Part shown: positions 24,469-49,900 of the stretch, piece after piece
Layout of the letters: every line of letters starts with the position of its first letter
Numbering within the stretch: position 1 is the stretch's first letter
Source: an uncultured Pseudomonadales bacterium
Lineage (GTDB): Bacteria > Patescibacteriota > Microgenomatia > UBA1400 > PJMF01
Reading direction: 5' to 3'
Assembly: GCA_964570365.1 (NCBI GenBank)
Contig: CAZMXT010000002.1
Location: 1 to 55,751 of the forward strand
Length of the DNA: 55,751 nucleotides
Program-made: the position numbers and the translations under genes
Notes under the pieces: model-generated
What the model saw: the letters and a program-made list of their open reading frames with translations, nothing else
Told to the model about the DNA's origin: nothing
Database searches by the model: none

Positions 24469-24706
24469 AGAAGCCTCCAAATGATTTTACTTCGCTTTAA
24501 GTAAGTAAGAATAAAGAGATTATACCTAGTTGAGGATAGCTGAACAGTAAGGAATGGGTAAGAGGATGAGAGATTAAAGAAAAAAGTCAAGATTTAGTCT
24601 TCTTCTCCACTTTTAGTAACTTTTTCATCTCGAAGAGCCTGCTGAATTTGTCTATCTGCTTCTGCAACAGCTTAGGACCATTCTCATGTAAGCAACTCAC
24701 CTTATG

Positions 24707-24780
24707 TCGGGCTGGCGGGACTCGAACCCACGACCTCACGCACCCCATGCGTGCATTCTAGCCATCTGAACTACAGCCCG
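24707..24780 (-). tRNA. tRNA-Pro(GGG), CCA not encoded
   Basis: Minus strand reads CGGGCTG...CACGC-ATGGGGT-GCGTG...GGTTCGAGTCC...CAGCCCG-A, a complete cloverleaf. Confidence 0.96.
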
Positions 24781-43570: not shown

Positions 43571-45193
43571 TTACTCAGTATACCCAAGTTTAGTGGCGGA
43601 TCGGTAGCCAAAGCGACGAGACTTCATCAAAAAGAAAGTCTCTTTGACTGCACCATAAATGACGTCCCAACGCGCGCCTGTTTGGGCGCCGTAGTGACGA
43701 GGATAGTGGGTTACACCAACCTGATCGTACACGTAATCGTGATCAATTACCTTCAACAATAGTTCGGTTGAGACCATTGCGCCGCGACTTTCTAGCGGCA
43801 TCAAGTCATCAACTACACTACGGTGGATCAATTTGAATGCACAGTCAATGTCTCGAATGGTAGATGGAAACTGGAAGAAGACGGCGTTCCAGATCTTTAG
43901 CATTTTTGCCAAAAGCAAACGCGACCACTTATCAGCACGTTTGATTCGATAGCCTATGACGGCTAAGTTTTCAGAAGTGAGAGGAACAAATTTGGTAAGT
44001 TCACCAAGATCAAACTGAAGGTCACCATCGGCAAAAAAGATCCATTCATGTTTTGCGGCGCTAAAACCAGTCTGAAGTGCACCGCCGTACCCTAAGTTTA
44101 CTTGATCAATAACGACGATGTGTTTATCTTTTTTGGCGAGTTGATGGGCAATGACAGAAGTCTTATCTTTACTCCCGTCGTTGACCACGATGATCTCGTA
44201 CTTCTCAGCGAGTTGAGGAACAACCTTTTGTGCTTGGGAAATCACCCGGGCAATATTTTCCTCTTCGTTATGCATTGGGAAGAAGACAGAGAGTGAGCGC
44301 AAACGTTGCGGGGTATTGAGTTTATGTCCCGCGATAGCCTCCACCGAAAGTGAAACAGGAGCTGACCAACCGCGAAGCTTGGTGTAGAGCTTGTAGAGCA
44401 CTGATTCAGGCAAGGAAATCACTAATGTTGCTTGGGCAAGTGTAGACACCAAACCCTGAAGGTTCGGCTTGTACCCGTGCTTAAAGACTGCATTCCAACG
44501 CGCACGTGCAATCTGCCAAAAGTCTTTCTTTGGATGGCGAGACGAGATGTTTTTGCTATGCATGCGGTAACTGAGCAGCTTATCTGGCATGTTTGCAATT
44601 TGGCCGTGCTGTAACAAACGGAATAACAGCTCATGTTCTTCAGCTGTCGCTAAGCCGTCTTCATACCAGTGAAAACCTTTTGGTAACAACATCGTGTTGA
44701 CCATCATGGTTGGTTGTTGGACGCTGGCAAAAGAAAACAGCATTTTACTGACCTGTGAAGGTTTGGTAGGAAAACGTTTATGACCAATAACTTGGCCAAA
44801 CTCGTTAATGACATCACACTGACCACCGACAGCCACAATTTCTGGATGTTTCACCAGGTACTTGAGCTGCACAGCCAAGCGGGTAGGCGAAGCGATATCA
44901 TCACTGTCCATACGCGCAATAAAGTGACTTTGGGCAAGTTTAATCGCTTTATTGGCAGTGTAGGACACACCTCGATTTTTTTGATTTCGGATGGCTTTAA
45001 TGCGTGAGTCTTTTTTTGCGAAACGCTGCAAGATCTCCCAAGAACCATCTGTAGAGTGGTCGTCAATGACAATCAGCTCCCAGTTCTTGTGAGTTTGTTT
45101 TTGAATACTTTGAAGGGCAGCCGGCAAAAACGAAACCGTGTTGTAGACCGGCATGATGATGCTGATACTTTGGTTTTGTGTATGACTTTTCAT
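43571..45193 (-). CDS. Tandem GT2-GT2 glycosyltransferase fusion
   Basis: Domain 1 IIMPVYN/IDDHSTD/RMDSDD; domain 2 (DPM1-like) VFFPMHNEE/VNDGSKD/FADGDLQF. Confidence 0.9.
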   Translation of the reverse strand: MKSHTQNQSISIIMPVYNTVSFLPAALQSIQKQTHKNWELIVIDDHSTDGSWEILQRFAKKDSRIKAIRNQKNRGVSYTANKAIKLAQSHFIARMDSDDIASPTRLAVQLKYLVKHPEIVAVGGQCDVINEFGQVIGHKRFPTKPSQVSKMLFSFASVQQPTMMVNTMLLPKGFHWYEDGLATAEEHELLFRLLQHGQIANMPDKLLSYRMHSKNISSRHPKKDFWQIARARWNAVFKHGYKPNLQGLVSTLAQATLVISLPESVLYKLYTKLRGWSAPVSLSVEAIAGHKLNTPQRLRSLSVFFPMHNEEENIARVISQAQKVVPQLAEKYEIIVVNDGSKDKTSVIAHQLAKKDKHIVVIDQVNLGYGGALQTGFSAAKHEWIFFADGDLQFDLGELTKFVPLTSENLAVIGYRIKRADKWSRLLLAKMLKIWNAVFFQFPSTIRDIDCAFKLIHRSVVDDLMPLESRGAMVSTELLLKVIDHDYVYDQVGVTHYPRHYGAQTGARWDVIYGAVKETFFLMKSRRFGYRSATKLGYTE

Positions 45194-45246
45194 GAGCCTT
45201 CTTTTATGAAACCTCAATTACTTCTACAGTTCGAATGAAACGTGGA

Positions 45247-45486
45247 TTATTTGTTGTTTTTCTTAAGCTGGAGACACTTGTTATAGATGTCTTCGACAAC
45301 CATGATGGAGTTCGTGCCAGCTTTGTTGTCTTGGTAGACAAACTTGGAAACATTCATACAACCATCGACAGACTGGCTATACATGGCTTGTTTCTGGATA
45401 CTTAAGAATGATTGACCTAAGTACGCAGCCACAGCAACACTAGCCGCTAAGACAGCTACGAATAAGATGTTTGTTGATACCTTCAT
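45247..45486 (-). CDS. Small membrane-anchored/secreted protein with a Cys pair
   Basis: MKVSTN, hydrophobic helix, VDGC...YNKCL; AAGGA RBS. Confidence 0.7.
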   Translation of the reverse strand: MKVSTNILFVAVLAASVAVAAYLGQSFLSIQKQAMYSQSVDGCMNVSKFVYQDNKAGTNSIMVVEDIYNKCLQLKKNNK

Positions 45487-45640
45487 ATCTTCCTTTTTCT
45501 TTTTAATTAACACGCTGACGTTCACAAAGTCTCACGAGTGAGGCTCTCTGAACGTCAGGCATACAGGTTTTGTAGTTAGCCCGACGTTATCTTACTGGGG
45601 GACGGTTTTTGAGGCCGTCCCTATGCGGAGTGCGAGTGTG
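45472..45640 (-). ncRNA. Structured 3' trailer that pairs with the 46394-46723 leader
   Basis: Local hairpins at 45515-45558 and 45599-45621, plus segments complementary to the leader (45472-45492, 45506-45512, 45557-45568, 45569-45591). Confidence 0.75.
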
Positions 45641-46393
45641 CTAGCTGTCGAGCGAGCTCACAACGCGATTGATTCGTGCCTGCAAGATAGGGCGCACGGT
45701 GTCCGGGACTTCATCTTCCCAGTAGTTCACGACACCACCTCCTGCCCATCCCCACACGGGGGACTCGACCAGAAGGCAGTTGCCGTTATCGCACAGGTTG
45801 TTATCGGAAGCCCCGAGTCCGACGTGCCGCGAAAACACCGTGTCGCCCGGGGCGACCATCAAGGTGTGGTTTTCGCCGGTTGAACGACGAAATTCGGGCC
45901 ACGGGGTAAGGACGACCAAACGGGCGCTGTTGGGATCCTGACTGACAACCCAGACATGATCCAGCAGTTCGGTGTCGGTGAGGTCTTCACAGTCCTCCAT
46001 CGCCACCTGCTGCTTCGCCAGTTCCCATGACAGGACGGCGATTTCGTTCATGGCTTCAGTGACGGCGGGGTTGAGTTCCCACACGACGAAACCAAAGTCC
46101 TGACCCCCCGCGTTGCGGGCGTAGGTGTCAGGCAGAAGAACAGCCTGCTGGCAGCCGCCTGTCAAGGTGGCTTCGCCATCGGCGGTCTGAAAGCGGAGAG
46201 AATGACCCACCATCGTGGCGACTTCATTCTCGGACGTACCAACGCCGGGGCGGCTTAGACCCAGTTCAGGGCCATAGCTGCTATCGGACACGCGGCGGAC
46301 ACGCCATTCGGAATCTTCTTGCGCCATCGCGGGTGCGACGGCGGTCATGAAGATGCTCATGACCAGCAGAGCGAAAAACAGTTTGGTACGCAT
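45641..46393 (-). CDS. Secreted hypothetical protein, high-GC cargo ORF
   Basis: Sec signal ending AMA-Q, four Cys, acidic; AAGGAG RBS at 46402-46407; two sampled 60-nt lines gave 60% and 62% GC. Confidence 0.85.
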   Translation of the reverse strand: MRTKLFFALLVMSIFMTAVAPAMAQEDSEWRVRRVSDSSYGPELGLSRPGVGTSENEVATMVGHSLRFQTADGEATLTGGCQQAVLLPDTYARNAGGQDFGFVVWELNPAVTEAMNEIAVLSWELAKQQVAMEDCEDLTDTELLDHVWVVSQDPNSARLVVLTPWPEFRRSTGENHTLMVAPGDTVFSRHVGLGASDNNLCDNGNCLLVESPVWGWAGGGVVNYWEDEVPDTVRPILQARINRVVSSLDS

Positions 46394-46723
46394 CGATATT
46401 GCTCCTTAGTGAGACGGTTCGAATTTTGTTCGCAGTTTTCCCTTGCGGGTACTCTGCCAGCTCTAAACGCGTCCTCAGATGAGAGAGAACACGTTGAAAG
46501 CTGACAGAATTGCGAATTCGATCATCAGGAGACTATAAATTTATCTCTTTCGAGATACCTGTATGCCTTGTTAATGTGCTCTCTTGCCTTTCACCTTGCG
46601 GTAAAAAGCAAAAGCACTTGTGCTACCGGCAGAACTCTTTGGCCGTAATGGCTAGGAGTGCTGTATATCGGCAGCGAGGTAGATACCTAATACCCACTTC
46701 GCTAAAGACATCAAAATTCAACA
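46394..46723 (-). ncRNA. Highly structured leader of about 330 nt (unassigned RNA motif)
   Basis: GCAA-, GAAA- and GCAA-capped hairpins (46576-46617, 46542-46557, 46440-46449) and a 25-bp stem (46451-46510); G-U pairs work on the minus strand only. Confidence 0.85.
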
Positions 46724-46729
46724 GGTCAT

Positions 46730-46758
46730 ACTATATCAAAATACTGTCCATTTGTCAA
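46730..46758 (-). promoter_or_regulatory. Consensus sigma70 promoter driving the structured RNA/cargo unit
   Basis: TTGACA (46753-46758)-17 nt-TATAGT (46730-46735) with extended TG. Confidence 0.85.
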
Positions 46759-46914
46759 TGTTATAGGCTTATTAAGCCTAGTTGGTGGGTTTGGGGTACA
46801 TTCTATCTCAAAAAAGCAGCGATCTGCCAAGAAAATAGAGTGAGTGTATACTCTTGCTAAAGCTTTTCTGCATCACAAAATTCTGTCTAAGTTAGTTACA
46901 ATCGATCAAGCAGT

Positions 46915-49900
46915 ATGAAAAAAATCTGGGAGTTACTTCAGCTTCATTGGCCAAAACTACTTTTGTGTTTTATTTGGCTGGCCATCGTTGTCACCAACTA
47001 CCAGCCAGGTACTTGGTTAAGTGGTTGGGATAATTTACACCCTGAATTTGACTTTTGGTTAAGTGTAAAAAGATCTTTTTCGGCTACATGGCAAGAATAC
47101 CAGGGAGTGGGCTTACTGGGTGGCATGAGCCATGCCGCAGATGTCACCCGCCAACTATTTCTATGGGCTCTATCATTTGTTTTCCCCCGTGACACATTGC
47201 GTTACATCTGGCATTTCTTAATGTTACTCATCGGACCACTGGGTGTACTGTCCCTGGCTACTTTCTTACTTTCACCAAAGTCGTCTCGGAAGAAACTAAG
47301 TCTTAAGGCTGCTAGTTTTATGGCTGGCTCATTTTATTTACTCAATTTAGCTACTGTTCAATACTTCTTTACTCCTTTTGAAACTTTTTCTAGCTTCTAC
47401 GGGTTTTTACCTTGGCTATTATATGGCGCGCTACGCTACTTAAAGTCACACAGTTCCAAAGATTTACTGCTCTTCTTTGCTATCTCAGTAGCAGCTAGTT
47501 CTGCCTTTTATGTCCAAACTTTATTTGTGGTTTATAGCTTGGTTTTGGGGATTTTTATGCTTAATGCTGCTTGGCCGTTTAGGGCTTTACAACTCAAAGC
47601 CTCTCTTAAACTAGCCCTAACAATTCTAGCCAGTAATGCTTTCTGGTTACTACCATCACTTTACTTTACCTTAACCGCCTCTGTTACCACGCTTCAAGCC
47701 AAACAAAATGTGATTTCCACTCCAGAAGTTCAGTATATGAATCAATACTTTGGGACTTTATCTGATATTGCCTTACTCAAAGGGTATTGGTTTAATTATC
47801 TTGACTTTGATACCTCACAGAAGAAGCCTGTCTTTTTATTTCAAGCTTGGCGAGATCACTTAGCTCAGTCACCCACGCAATGGGTAGGTTTTAGTTTTTT
47901 TATCATGGCAGTGCTAGGAATAATCTTTTTGATTAAAAAGAAAAACTTTGCTTTTGCTCCGGCCATTGCTTTTGTTTTTGCGCTGGTGGTTTTAATTCTG
48001 ACTGCCGGCAACGGTATCTTTGGGGTGGGTTTTACTTTTTTGTCTGACCACGTACCCTTGTTTGGCCAAATTTTTAGAACTGTTTTTACTAAATGGTCAA
48101 TTGTGGCTGCGCTCATTTACAGTTTAGGTTTATTTAATTTTTTTCACACTTTACTCAGTTTTAGAATGCATCGTTTTGCTGCCTACCTCAGATTACTGAT
48201 CGTACCCCTCTTTATCAGTCTGTTAATCTTCTACACCTTACCAATTTTTAAAGGTCATTTTCTGGCTGACTTAGTCCGAGTTAAGATTCCCACGCCCTAC
48301 TTTGAATTATTTAGTTTTTTCAAAACGCAACCTAAACAAGCTCGAATTGCTTCTTTTCCCGTTCAGTCTGGGTGGGGCTGGGGGCTGCATACCTGGAAAT
48401 ATAGTGGTAGCGGTTTTTTGTGGTATGGGATTGAACAACCAATTTTAGATCGAGCCTTTGATGTTTGGAGTCCTCACAATGAAACCTATTTCAACCAGAT
48501 TTCTGAGGCAGTCTACGGTAATGATCCTCAAGCCCTAGCTAATACGCTAAAACAGTATCAAGTGTCGTATCTTTTGATTGATGAAAGCATTACCACCTAC
48601 GACCGCGACCAAGCCTTTTTATTTTTCCCTGAAACTAAAAATTTGTTAAGCCAAATTGGCGCAAAAGTCGTCTGGCAAAAAGATTTCTTAACTATTTATC
48701 AAACTCCATTTAGTTCTCGTTCTTTTCTTAATGCTCCAGCTAGTTTTAGTCATATTGATGTTAATACGGTTTACGGTCGAAGGGATCAAGCCTTTGCGCA
48801 ATACGGCAATTACATTTCGCTTAATAACATTGAAACTGAACTACCCTCAGTAATTTTGCCTTTTCATAGTTTGTATTCTACAAACCTTAAAGATATGGCC
48901 GTTGAGAATCAGAAGGTGGTAATTAGAAAAAATGTCCCGCTTCACGGACAAACTCAAGTGGTAATACCAGCCTTAGCCACTGGTCAGAACTATACAACTC
49001 CAGCCGAAATTAGCTACAGCAATGCTCAGATATCAATTACTTTTCCCATTCCCAAACTAGATATCAATGATCACTCATTTACTCTGGCTCAGCTCCCAGC
49101 AGTGTCAATCAAGGCTCCAGTGGCTTCAGAGAATATTGTGCTCCAGATAGCTGACCAGCAAATTTACCTTAAACCTCAGCAACTAGTTTCAGTCAGTTTT
49201 GTTTTACCGGCTGGTAAAGAAATATCTGCTTCAGTTTTTGATGAAGCAGATATTGACTTCTCCACTTCTGAGCCTGTCATTGGTCAAGAAGATGTGATTG
49301 AAGATGTTCTCTCTCCTAGCATCTGGACAGAGTTGCTTAACCCTCAGACCTTCCCAGTTAGTCCGGAAAATAACTCAGTTAATTTAGCCATTTCATTGCC
49401 CGTCACCGCCCAAACCATTCCTTCCACCCAATCTTCAGATACAAATTGTGATGCTTTTCAACGAGGTGAATTTACCAATCTAACAGAAGGGGCTAAAACT
49501 TTTTTTACCGCTGATAATTTTGCGATTCTCTGCCATATTTCGAATGTATATCCGGTCTCAACTCGTAACAGCTATTTAGTTCATATTAAAGGCGAAAATC
49601 TTCTAGGGCGCAGCTTGCGACTCTTTGTCTACAATAAAGAAACAAACCGTTCTGATCTGGAAGAAATTTTACCCAAGAAAAAATTTGATAGTTTTTACAG
49701 TCTTTTGAGTTGGCCATTAATACCAGAAAATTTTTACGATTTAAATTTAGTGACTCGTTCATTTGGCCAGAAAAGTCAGAATGTAACTGAAAAAGTTGAG
49801 ATCTACCCTTTTCCTCTAGAGTATGTATCACAGATTTACCTGTCTGCGGCTGATACCCAGAGCTCACTCAATCTTAAGAATTCCACCAAGCTTTCTCAAA

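Follow-up and report, generated by a model that had tools for sequence, protein, structure and literature searches.

The locus

The stretch of DNA analysed here, referred to as the window, comprises 55,751 nt of contig CAZMXT010000002.1 from an uncultured bacterium of the class Microgenomatia (Patescibacteriota), and the genome carrying it amounts to 1.06 Mb in 28 contigs. The element in question is a minus-strand unit in which a structured 5' leader, an open reading frame (ORF) of 250 codons, called the cargo below, and a 3' trailer follow one another (Table 1), and in which a segment of the leader and a segment of the trailer, the two arms of helix H3, are complementary. An earlier note on this DNA, made from its letters, had proposed that leader and trailer pair through four nested helices, H1 to H4, and form an undescribed structured-mRNA cassette around a foreign-looking ORF. 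We find that H3 is conserved and covaries across families of the class, that hairpins flank both of its arms, and that the cargo it encloses is exchangeable and anomalous in composition.

Ahead of the leader stands the consensus promoter that the earlier note had read, which was borne out together with its additional TG, and a conserved CCYATAAC box lies 5' of it. The cargo ORF is separated by a spacer of 155 nt from a downstream ORF of 79 codons, and a divergent gene for a membrane protein of 1092 codons starts at 46915.

Table 1. Features of the leader-cargo-trailer unit and its downstream genes, listed in the direction of the minus strand (MFE, minimum free energy; GC3, GC content at third codon positions; L and G numbers and four-digit P numbers, here and in the text, are our handles for loci, genomes and proteins)
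Feature	Position	Strand	Basis and remarks
Promoter	46730..46758	-	Extended -10 sigma-70 type: TTGACA, 17 nt, TG-TATAGT; 11/12 match to consensus
5' leader, about 330 nt, with hairpins	46394..46723	-	MFE fold; no Rfam match
H1, 5' arm	46704..46723	-	Transcript 5' end; MFE fold; pair probability 0.85-1.0
P3 hairpin	46576..46617	-	Last hairpin before the H2 5' arm; MFE fold
H2, 5' arm, AUUAACA	46569..46575	-	Includes the invariant UUAAC; pair probability 0.53-0.67
H3, 5' arm, AGGCAUACAGGU	46557..46568	-	Conserved scaffold core; pair probability 0.62-1.0
P4 hairpin, AUCUC-GAAA-GAGAU	46543..46556	-	Adjoins the H3 5' arm on its 3' side; MFE fold
Leader helix enclosing a long hairpin	46401..46533	-	Pairs of the MFE fold; single sequence only
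Cargo ORF, 250 aa, N-terminus signal peptide-like	45641..46393	-	ORF list; GC 0.60, GC3 0.70
Hairpin with A-rich loop CUCAAAAA	45599..45621	-	Just 3' of the stop codon; similar hairpin after the L005 homologue
H3, 3' arm, ACCUGUAUGCCU	45557..45568	-	Perfect 12-bp complement of 46557-46568
P5 hairpin	45515..45556	-	Inverted repeat adjoining the H3 3' arm; terminator-like position; z -3.4 in the window
H2, 3' arm, UGUUAAU	45506..45512	-	MFE fold and ensemble
H1, 3' arm	45472..45492	-	Shares letters with the ribosome-binding site and AUG (45486-45484) of the small ORF that follows
Small membrane protein gene, 79 aa	45247..45486	-	AUG at 45486-45484; conserved downstream neighbour of the cargo
Two-domain family-2 glycosyltransferase gene	43571..45217	-	Pfam PF00535, E 5e-64; operon context

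Leader and trailer pair in the window

Folding of the full transcript (46725..45465), read both as the MFE structure and as pair probabilities of the ensemble, places H1, H2 and H3 in nested order at the coordinates first proposed, and H2 and H3 together make 19 bp with one unpaired A. The fourth helix of the proposed nest did not hold up: H4 (46520-46539 with 45569-45591) reaches a maximum pair probability of 0.018, and in the ensemble its leader stretch pairs locally with 46401-46420 instead. When the leader (46723-46520) is linked to the trailer (45600-45465), 55 pairs form between them with a ddG of -26.7 kcal/mol relative to the separate folds. None of 200 dinucleotide shuffles of the trailer (mean -6.9, z -7.0) and none of 200 of the leader (mean -7.4, z -5.9) reaches this value, and the claim of end-to-end pairing beyond shuffled controls stood. 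As predicted by these folds, the pairing of leader and trailer in the window is real and non-random.

The outermost helix contributes little to this result. H1 is rich in A/U and G.U pairs, and in a position-restricted test its duplex with shuffled 5' ends was as good as with the true one (-18.1 against a mean of -18.6 kcal/mol, z 0.2); against a narrower target the z was -1.7, with 5 of 60 shuffles as good. Only one of six other loci with a small downstream ORF has a counterpart, L005 (z -4.6 and -4.0), the z being -0.1 or higher in G002, G126, G014, G167 and G172. Judged from these loci, H1 is apparently not a conserved part of the scaffold. In type I toxin mRNAs of the hok type, the two ends of the full-length transcript, 5' and 3', pair and so close it, and the predicted H1 of the window recalls these in covering the ribosome-binding site of the downstream small ORF. 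However, the ORFs enclosed here code for secreted proteins of 176-464 aa and not for a small toxic peptide, and H1 is at chance level and not conserved. The ORF of the window in particular encodes a 250-aa secreted protein and no small hydrophobic toxin, as the earlier note had itself seen, which sets it apart from hok and aapA, and no antisense RNA is evident, though no search aimed at one was made.

Hairpins at the junctions, also part of the earlier proposal, are present: P4 follows the 5' arm of H3 and P5 follows the 3' arm. No U-tract terminator was called in 45515..45556 of the window. Further down the leader, a CUCCU stretch (46527-46531) pairs in the MFE fold of this one sequence with the Shine-Dalgarno region of the cargo (46402-46406), a predicted helix that may act as a translational control element.

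The Rfam search that the earlier note had called for turned up nothing relevant in the window or in 20 related loci. At the gathering score the whole window gave a tRNA-Pro (GGG; 24706-24780, minus strand), which is also the sole match by Rfam or ARAGORN, and the related loci (119,828 bases) gave none; for 45200-47000 at E<=10 the top match was mir-8338, whose 28.6 bits fall short of its gathering score of 80. By these comparisons, the element belongs to no curated Rfam family, among them introns, riboswitches, HEARO, GOLLD, ROOL, OLE and leaders. It is also alone in its genome: a BLASTN search with 45400-46800 against the 28 contigs returned its own locus only, and scans of the genome for the short leader and trailer motifs gave background only.

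The arms of H3 recur around unrelated genes

Genomes were searched with the pattern TTAACAN{0,1}GGYATACAG, and with the reversed pattern as control. Within the order, the leader motif UUAAC(A)AGGYAUACAG was found in 20 of 286 genomes, as a single copy in each, and the control in none; the matches fall in the window's own genome, in 18 of 139 other genomes of its family and in one of six genomes of another family. An even sample of the class gave 18 matches in 401 genomes (control, one), 15 of them new, and 11 of the 15 came from one other family. The strict pattern probably undercounts diverged copies. Longer stretches were examined for 17 and a further 12 genomes; four genomes with the motif at a contig end (G022, G165, G204, G311) were left out, as were two class-level matches that look like chance (G570 and G431).

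Every locus with downstream sequence carries the complementary trailer arm (30/30; 18/18 and 12/12 in the two sets of loci). It lies 710-3015 nt downstream, 3' of the last enclosed ORF and directly 5' of a strong hairpin, and forms a helix of 11-18 bp with a dG of -16 to -29 kcal/mol. On the leader side, TTAAC is invariant in all 19 aligned leaders. The promoter block and both motifs, that of the leader and that of the trailer, are present in L005, a metagenome contig, and in G126, and the H3 arms of G126, AGGUAUACAGAA and UUCUGUAUACCU, differ from those of the window, AGGCAUACAGGU and ACCUGUAUGCCU, at three compensated positions. Counterparts of H2 were read by eye: G172 has one of 7 bp with its end pair compensated (A-U vs C-G), G126, L005 and G225 have 5 bp each, and in G128, G013 and a second family H2 is contiguous with H3. 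The genes beyond P5 share its strand, as a rule begin 40-150 nt further on, and encode the small membrane protein, glycosyltransferases or a membrane protein of 880-1100 aa.

The genes between the arms differ from locus to locus. The longest inter-arm ORF is on the leader strand in 29 of 29 loci, the thirtieth, G115, having been dropped from the count because its ORF is masked by N. Compared by BLASTP (E<=1e-5 across 60 residues or more), these main ORFs fall into six groups and 11 singletons and so represent no fewer than 17 unrelated kinds, and three of the groups unite genomes from different families. The search for homologous scaffolds around different ORFs, which the earlier note had named as support, was therefore answered for H3 and in part for H2, and not for H1 or H4.

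Two further observations concern the architecture of these loci. A second copy of the trailer arm (CTGTATGCC) stands after the small membrane-protein gene and just before the next gene in G014 (L043, near 4044) and G172 (L045, near 3911). Insertions are tolerated in the gap that separates the main cargo from the H3 5' arm: L005 holds an insert of about 350 nt (about 420-750) with a minus-strand membrane ORF of 73 aa, G167 (L044) has an extra AT-rich ORF of 138 aa (GC 0.29), and G002, G155 and G285 (L036, L042, L049) have extra membrane proteins of 116-147 aa.

Covariation of the helix

Covariation in H3 was assessed over the 30 loci by our own pair counts and by permutation of the trailers. 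At the Y position of the core, 25 loci have C and five have U, and all five U loci have A opposite; the U variants span three families (G006, G126 and G128; G348; G599). Outside the core, the first extension column holds 20 G-C, five A-U, two G.U and three other combinations, and the second 12 A-U, nine G-C, three U-A and six others. Contiguous extension pairs number 76, against 47.6 +/- 4.7 with permuted trailers (0/2000), although these permutations ignore phylogeny and overstate significance, and the 0/2000 should not be read as a true probability. Compensated changes nevertheless occur in several lineages, and the helix also contains G.U wobbles (three in G002, others in G128, G155 and G285) and small bulges (G128, G155, G014 and G474). 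The covariation that the earlier note had named as support, for all four helices, is thus present in H3, and H1 and H4 have no comparative support. Taken with the recurrence of the arms and the lack of an Rfam family, this supports the description as an undescribed structured-mRNA cassette, and we consider it very probable that the helix is a real, selected element new to the literature.

The pattern of conservation also bears on what reads the helix. One alternative is that the arms are binding sites of one sequence-specific protein, on DNA (by looping or repression) or on RNA, their complementarity being a by-product of opposite orientation. The GGYAUACAG core and UUAAC are invariant or nearly so across families of the class, which exceeds what base-pairing needs; against this, the positions flanking the core vary and yet stay complementary in the permutation comparison, and the change from C to U is matched by G to A in every case. 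Both patterns are those expected of a helix and not of two independently read sites, even if concerted evolution could partly mimic them, and we judge the alternative very unlikely. A sequence-specific partner, a protein or a tertiary contact, is nevertheless suggested by the near-invariant helix, because pairing alone fails to explain it. A CsrA site (RUACARGGAUGU) was considered and dropped; it fits leaders of the G013 type only, and many leaders have ACAGAAA.

Hairpins beside the arms

An RNAalifold consensus fold of the MAFFT leader alignment returned 0 pairs because the variable hairpins are misaligned, and z-scores of hairpins in each sequence were used instead. Hairpins in the P3 position, before UUAAC, have a mean z of -2.7 and fall below -1 in 29 of 30 loci; those in the P4 position, after the 5' arm, have the same mean, fall below -1 in 22 of 30 loci and often carry a GAAA-type loop; those in the P5 position, after the 3' arm, have a mean z of -4.8 and fall below -1 in 28 of 30 loci, the exceptions being G348 and G599. 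While the positions are fixed, the sequences of the hairpins are unrelated between loci.

The place of P5 raises the question of a switch in read-through, in which pairing of leader and trailer would compete with or promote P5 as a terminator or attenuator and so set transcription into the downstream glycosylation and membrane genes. A U-rich tract does follow P5 in G008, G115, G145, G155 and G474, and, read by eye, the P5 5' strand GUUGU can pair with the invariant leader AACAA in G013 and in three loci of family f45 (G498, G462, G589). However, P5 lacks a U tract in the window and at many further loci, the alternative pairing amounts to just 3-5 bp, and in most loci P5 lies outside H3. Such a switch seems to us quite unlikely.

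A second use of the duplex would be as a processing stalk. In rRNA operons, leader-trailer stalks flank a functional RNA, bring its ends together and are processed by RNase III, as are phage T7 early mRNAs. The arms described here are likewise conserved complements, 1-3 kb apart, that join RNA ends; the RNA that they enclose, in contrast, is a variable mRNA, and the helix is shorter. It can be hypothesized that RNase III cuts the duplex of leader and trailer (H3, which in the window stacks on H2), releasing the cargo mRNA from a polycistron and uncoupling the glycosyltransferase genes from it. The genome encodes an RNase III (PF14622, 121.8 bits), the 19 bp of H2 and H3 in the window would offer it a duplex, and the same-strand genes 40-150 nt after P5 in most loci make processing plausible. 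There is also a precedent for a duplex of this kind: in Staphylococcus aureus, the icaR 3' UTR (untranslated region) pairs with that mRNA's own 5' UTR and the duplex is described as an RNase III substrate, the 3' UTR masking the Shine-Dalgarno sequence and repressing translation (Ruiz de los Mozos et al. 2013, PMC3868564). The likeness to icaR extends to the 3' UTR-5' UTR pairing and to the presence of RNase III in the window's genome, and not to the masking: the H3 5' arm, which lies upstream of the cargo start at a distance of 164 nt, does not reach the ribosome-binding site, and in the fold the Shine-Dalgarno sequence of the cargo (about 46401-46406) pairs with a leader segment and not with the trailer. 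As for cleavage, H3 is mostly of 11-18 bp, short for a canonical site, which takes about two helical turns, H2 is not contiguous or conserved everywhere, and the strict conservation of the helix sequence is unusual for RNase III sites. A processing stalk is accordingly an unlikely reading, if one with concrete points in its favour.

The enclosed proteins and their composition

Across the loci the enclosed cargos are secreted proteins of 176-464 aa. By eye, their N-termini read as a signal peptide, as a lipoprotein signal (...AC/GC) or as a membrane anchor with Pro/Thr-rich linkers behind it, and strong Shine-Dalgarno sites precede them. In a Pfam scan of 10 cargos, eight had no family and two had an SH3b domain. 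The protein of the window has no Pfam or NCBIfam family either. Nine relatives at 57-99% identity were found among 5.8 billion proteins, with lengths of 249-348 aa, and its ESM Atlas scores are 0.85 or lower. Its AlphaFold2 model is of moderate confidence (predicted local distance difference test, pLDDT, 77) and gave no match to a PDB fold at E<=0.001, the best full-length template-modelling (TM) score being about 0.2. Two scans of genome contigs gave no homologue of this cargo; by protein search, homologue loci were found on three metagenome contigs and in five of the 286 genomes of the order.

The cargo has been called foreign-looking, and its composition bears this out: its GC3 of 0.70 ranks first among the genome's 815 ORFs with 150 aa or more (means, GC 0.445 and GC3 0.43). 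Codon bias of highly expressed genes was rejected as the cause, the ribosomal-protein genes and EF-Tu having a GC3 of 0.32-0.49. A recent insertion is another matter. The order homologue, small membrane protein, large membrane or glycosyltransferase-like gene is the same in L005 (56% identity), G126 (L009) and G137 (L008), and because the cargo family keeps the same downstream neighbour in its relatives, the cargo of the window is an old resident and not a recent arrival. The GC excess is a property of the loci in general, inter-arm GC being above that of the flanks in 28 of 30 (0.512 vs 0.427). It is common to unrelated cargos and is not seen in the homologue in G137, which lies outside the scaffold, with a short AT-rich leader, neither of the scaffold motifs and an ordinary GC of 0.43-0.46. 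GC-biased conversion or foreign origin may be its cause, and both remain candidates.

Two observations on individual cargos may be recorded here. When synonymous codons were shuffled, the cargo of G013 (L037, 2488-3544 in oriented coordinates) folded at -496.6 against -395.1 +/- 8.2 (z -12.4) and that of G006 gave z -5.4, both taken without controls from their own genomes. In a near-identical strain (98-99% nt identity), the cargo ORF contains an in-frame tandem duplication of 66 nt (L004, about 2240-2310; protein P0001), which makes it 271 aa long as compared to 249/250 aa.

The composition and the closed ends could be taken to mark an RNA destined for elsewhere, and the earlier note had indeed listed export, packaging, circular forms and a mobile RNA or ssDNA unit among the possible functions. 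According to this alternative, the clamp formed by the arms would tag the mRNA for packaging, for transfer to a host cell or for circularisation. The geometry and the foreign composition of the cargo are all that speak for it. Rfam found no ribozyme, intron or ligase-type motif, the bacterial signal peptides and lipoprotein signals and the strong Shine-Dalgarno sites fit translation and secretion in the same cell, and the unit heads an ordinary operon, in single copy at one conserved chromosomal locus. We regard this fate of the RNA as extremely improbable.

Exchange of the unit in natural populations

The stretch studied here is contained in 17 DNA sequencing runs, mostly microbial-mat metagenomes, and in no RNA run, and the contigs of four of these DNA runs were compared with 44800-47400; such contigs drop rare variants. 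A contig of 3894 nt from a co-occurring relative matches 44898-45166 and 46730-47326, and 1934 other letters replace the 1563 between. In two further runs contigs diverge exactly at 46730, the end of the -10 box. Because contigs swap the whole 45166-46730 unit, everything transcribed between the start site and a point shortly within the glycosyltransferase gene is an exchangeable natural allele. On a smaller scale, contigs of two runs have 75 different letters where the window has the 83 nt of 46371-46453, a stretch that takes in the ribosome-binding site of the cargo and the beginning of its signal peptide. The 75-letter replacement matches an alternative N-terminus, MRKLFPVLL..., of the homologues P0001-P0003.

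The fact that a hypervariable gene, both between genomes and within a natural population, is flanked by perfect 12-bp inverted repeats invites another reading of the arms, as DNA inverted repeats for site-specific recombination that would invert or capture a segment and phase-vary or swap the surface-protein gene; exchange between the arms would, moreover, keep them identical. An invertible segment or shufflon should be met in both orientations. The longest ORF is on the leader strand in 29 of 29 loci, and no strand-changing joint was found in the contigs of the four runs, a weak negative as contigs drop rare forms. In the population data the unit breaks in its conserved flanks, one point being the promoter (46730) and the other falling within the GT2 (family-2 glycosyltransferase) gene (45166), and not at the H3 repeats; no recombinase-like ORF is apparent beside the listed loci, by eye and by Pfam and NCBIfam on a few neighbours; and four loci have G.U-type mismatches, while hairpins in the style of RNA, some with GAAA loops, stand beside both arms. 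Altogether, recombination at the arms is highly unlikely. Two known DNA sites were compared as resemblances and dropped: the integron attC core (RYYYAAC/GTTRRRY), which the leader sequences CTTTAAC and CATTAAC do not fit, and the Xer dif sites.

The arrangement resembles in several respects the expression sites of variable surface proteins elsewhere. The leaders of S-layer genes and the 16-mer in the 3' UTR of trypanosome variant surface glycoprotein (VSG) genes are conserved untranslated flanks of such sites. In common with them, the loci described here have one strong site, conserved non-coding flanks, interchangeable genes for putative surface proteins and neighbouring glycosylation genes. 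On the other hand, no archive of silent cassettes was found in the genome, the leader and trailer being in single copy, the variation is between genomes or strains, and the two flanks pair with each other.

Promoter type and neighbouring genes

The promoter block is also present in L005 and in most related loci. Together with the upstream CCYATAAC box (46759-46775, minus strand in the window) it is 83-89% identical to promoters of G010 and G021 (L002 1497-1545; L003 about 1490-1540), which precede genes for other secreted or anchored proteins, with different leaders and no H3 motif. To judge from these matches, the promoter with the CCYATAAC box looks like a common strong type for envelope proteins.

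ORFs of 69-80 aa homologous to the small membrane protein lie 3' of the cargo in L005, G137, G126, G002, G014 and G172. The protein (45247-45486, minus strand, in the window; L005 2383-2607; L008 2318-2551; L009 2365-2592) is a single-pass membrane protein with two cysteines and the tail ...(V/D)(E/D)D(I/L)YxKCL...KG, and it has no family in Pfam or NCBIfam. The NCBIfam matches of the glycosyltransferase (43571..45217) are below the equivalog cut-offs.

Discussion

The closest known relative of the pairing described here is that of the Bacillus subtilis hbs mRNA, in which a fully complementary 14-nt segment of the 5' UTR, downstream of a leader hairpin, pairs with a dG of -19 kcal/mol shortly upstream of the terminator (PMC5737220). 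According to the published account, compensatory mutants showed that the pairing limits cleavage of the leader by RNase Y as well as 3' decay (Braun, Durand & Condon 2017, PMC5737220), and hbs is described there as an abundant and stable mRNA of one housekeeping gene, in one lineage, with a span of 0.3 kb (PMC5737220). In our case, the complementary UTR segments are of similar size (12 bp in the window; 11-18 bp with a dG of -16 to -29 in 30/30 loci), the 5' arm lies between leader hairpins P3 and P4, and the 3' arm lies immediately 5' of P5, which begins within a few nt and has a U tract in some loci only. The differences are as instructive: the arms are conserved across families of the class, with a span of 0.7-3 kb and unrelated genes enclosed, their sequence hardly varies, the leader is far larger, P5 often stands inside an operon instead of being the terminal terminator, and the interaction here is a predicted one.

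By analogy with this 5'/3'-UTR interaction of hbs, a stabilising mechanism can be proposed. A single strong extended -10 promoter would drive a structured leader of 170-1000 nt, and transcription would run through the whole unit. The leader segment UUAAC(A)AGGYAUACAG would then pair in the cell with its complement just after the enclosed stop codon, immediately before the stable P5, so that H3 (11-18 bp) would close the 5' UTR onto the cargo segment at its 3' end. Clamp and P5 together would keep nucleases away, endonucleases from the leader and exonucleases from the 3' end, and the cargo segment would accumulate as a long-lived mRNA with the downstream genes expressed at a lower level. A GC-rich coding sequence might offer nucleases fewer AU-rich single-stranded sites, which would fit the logic of the clamp. 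Among the functions listed in the earlier note, a nuclease-resistant mRNA would fit best. This is the reading that we favour: the clamp, aided by P5, would give the cargo segment a long life and keep it separate from the distal genes. Taken whole, we hold the statement to be evenly poised between right and wrong. The locus itself would be an expression site for a variable, probably glycosylated, cell-surface protein at the head of a glycosyltransferase and membrane-protein operon.

Several points weigh against this interpretation. The helices that gave the unit its closed look at the extreme ends, H1 and H4, are those without support. By complementarity alone, a helix of RNA and an inverted repeat of DNA look the same, G.U pairs in the core of H3 are few, some loci have A.C or other mismatches (G167 and G625), and the core sequence is conserved far beyond the need of a plain helix. 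As no U tract follows P5 in the window, the cargo mRNA would have to obtain its 3' end by processing. Shuffling of synonymous codons in the window cargo gave z -2.2 (0/40), against -0.5 to -2.1 in four control genes of the same genome, and by this measure the cargo is not distinctive, for instance when set beside EF-Tu. Finally, the surface role is drawn from N-terminal signals judged by eye and from the neighbouring glycosyltransferases, and can be put forth as a probable one at best.

A broader proposal, which we make tentatively and with rather less confidence than the clamp itself, is that members of this class of ultra-small bacteria possess a portable RNA expression frame, in which a 5' and a 3' module clamp around any gene for a secreted protein and would allow foreign, rapidly exchanged genes for surface proteins or host interaction to be expressed from one strong promoter as unusually stable, GC-rich mRNAs, the helix being read by a sequence-specific factor. 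If true, such a frame would amount to a novel class of large cis-acting RNA structures and give bacteria a counterpart to the closed-loop or expression-site logic of eukaryotes. A search of the accessible literature found no published description of such an element in Patescibacteria or the candidate phyla radiation (CPR). What is new is the combination, i.e. two arms kept across families while the enclosed gene changes, within a large structured leader and at a conserved envelope locus. The GC excess of unrelated cargos, missing in the homologue without the frame, is an observation worth following up in its own right.

If confirmed, the element would add a large conserved cis-acting RNA architecture beyond all Rfam families, and would offer a natural system in which to ask how end-to-end structure and GC-rich coding sequence control the life-time of an mRNA. 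For the organisms themselves, which are mostly uncultured and whose proteins of the surface and of host contact are almost unknown, a simple sequence signature would flag the expression site of a variable surface protein.

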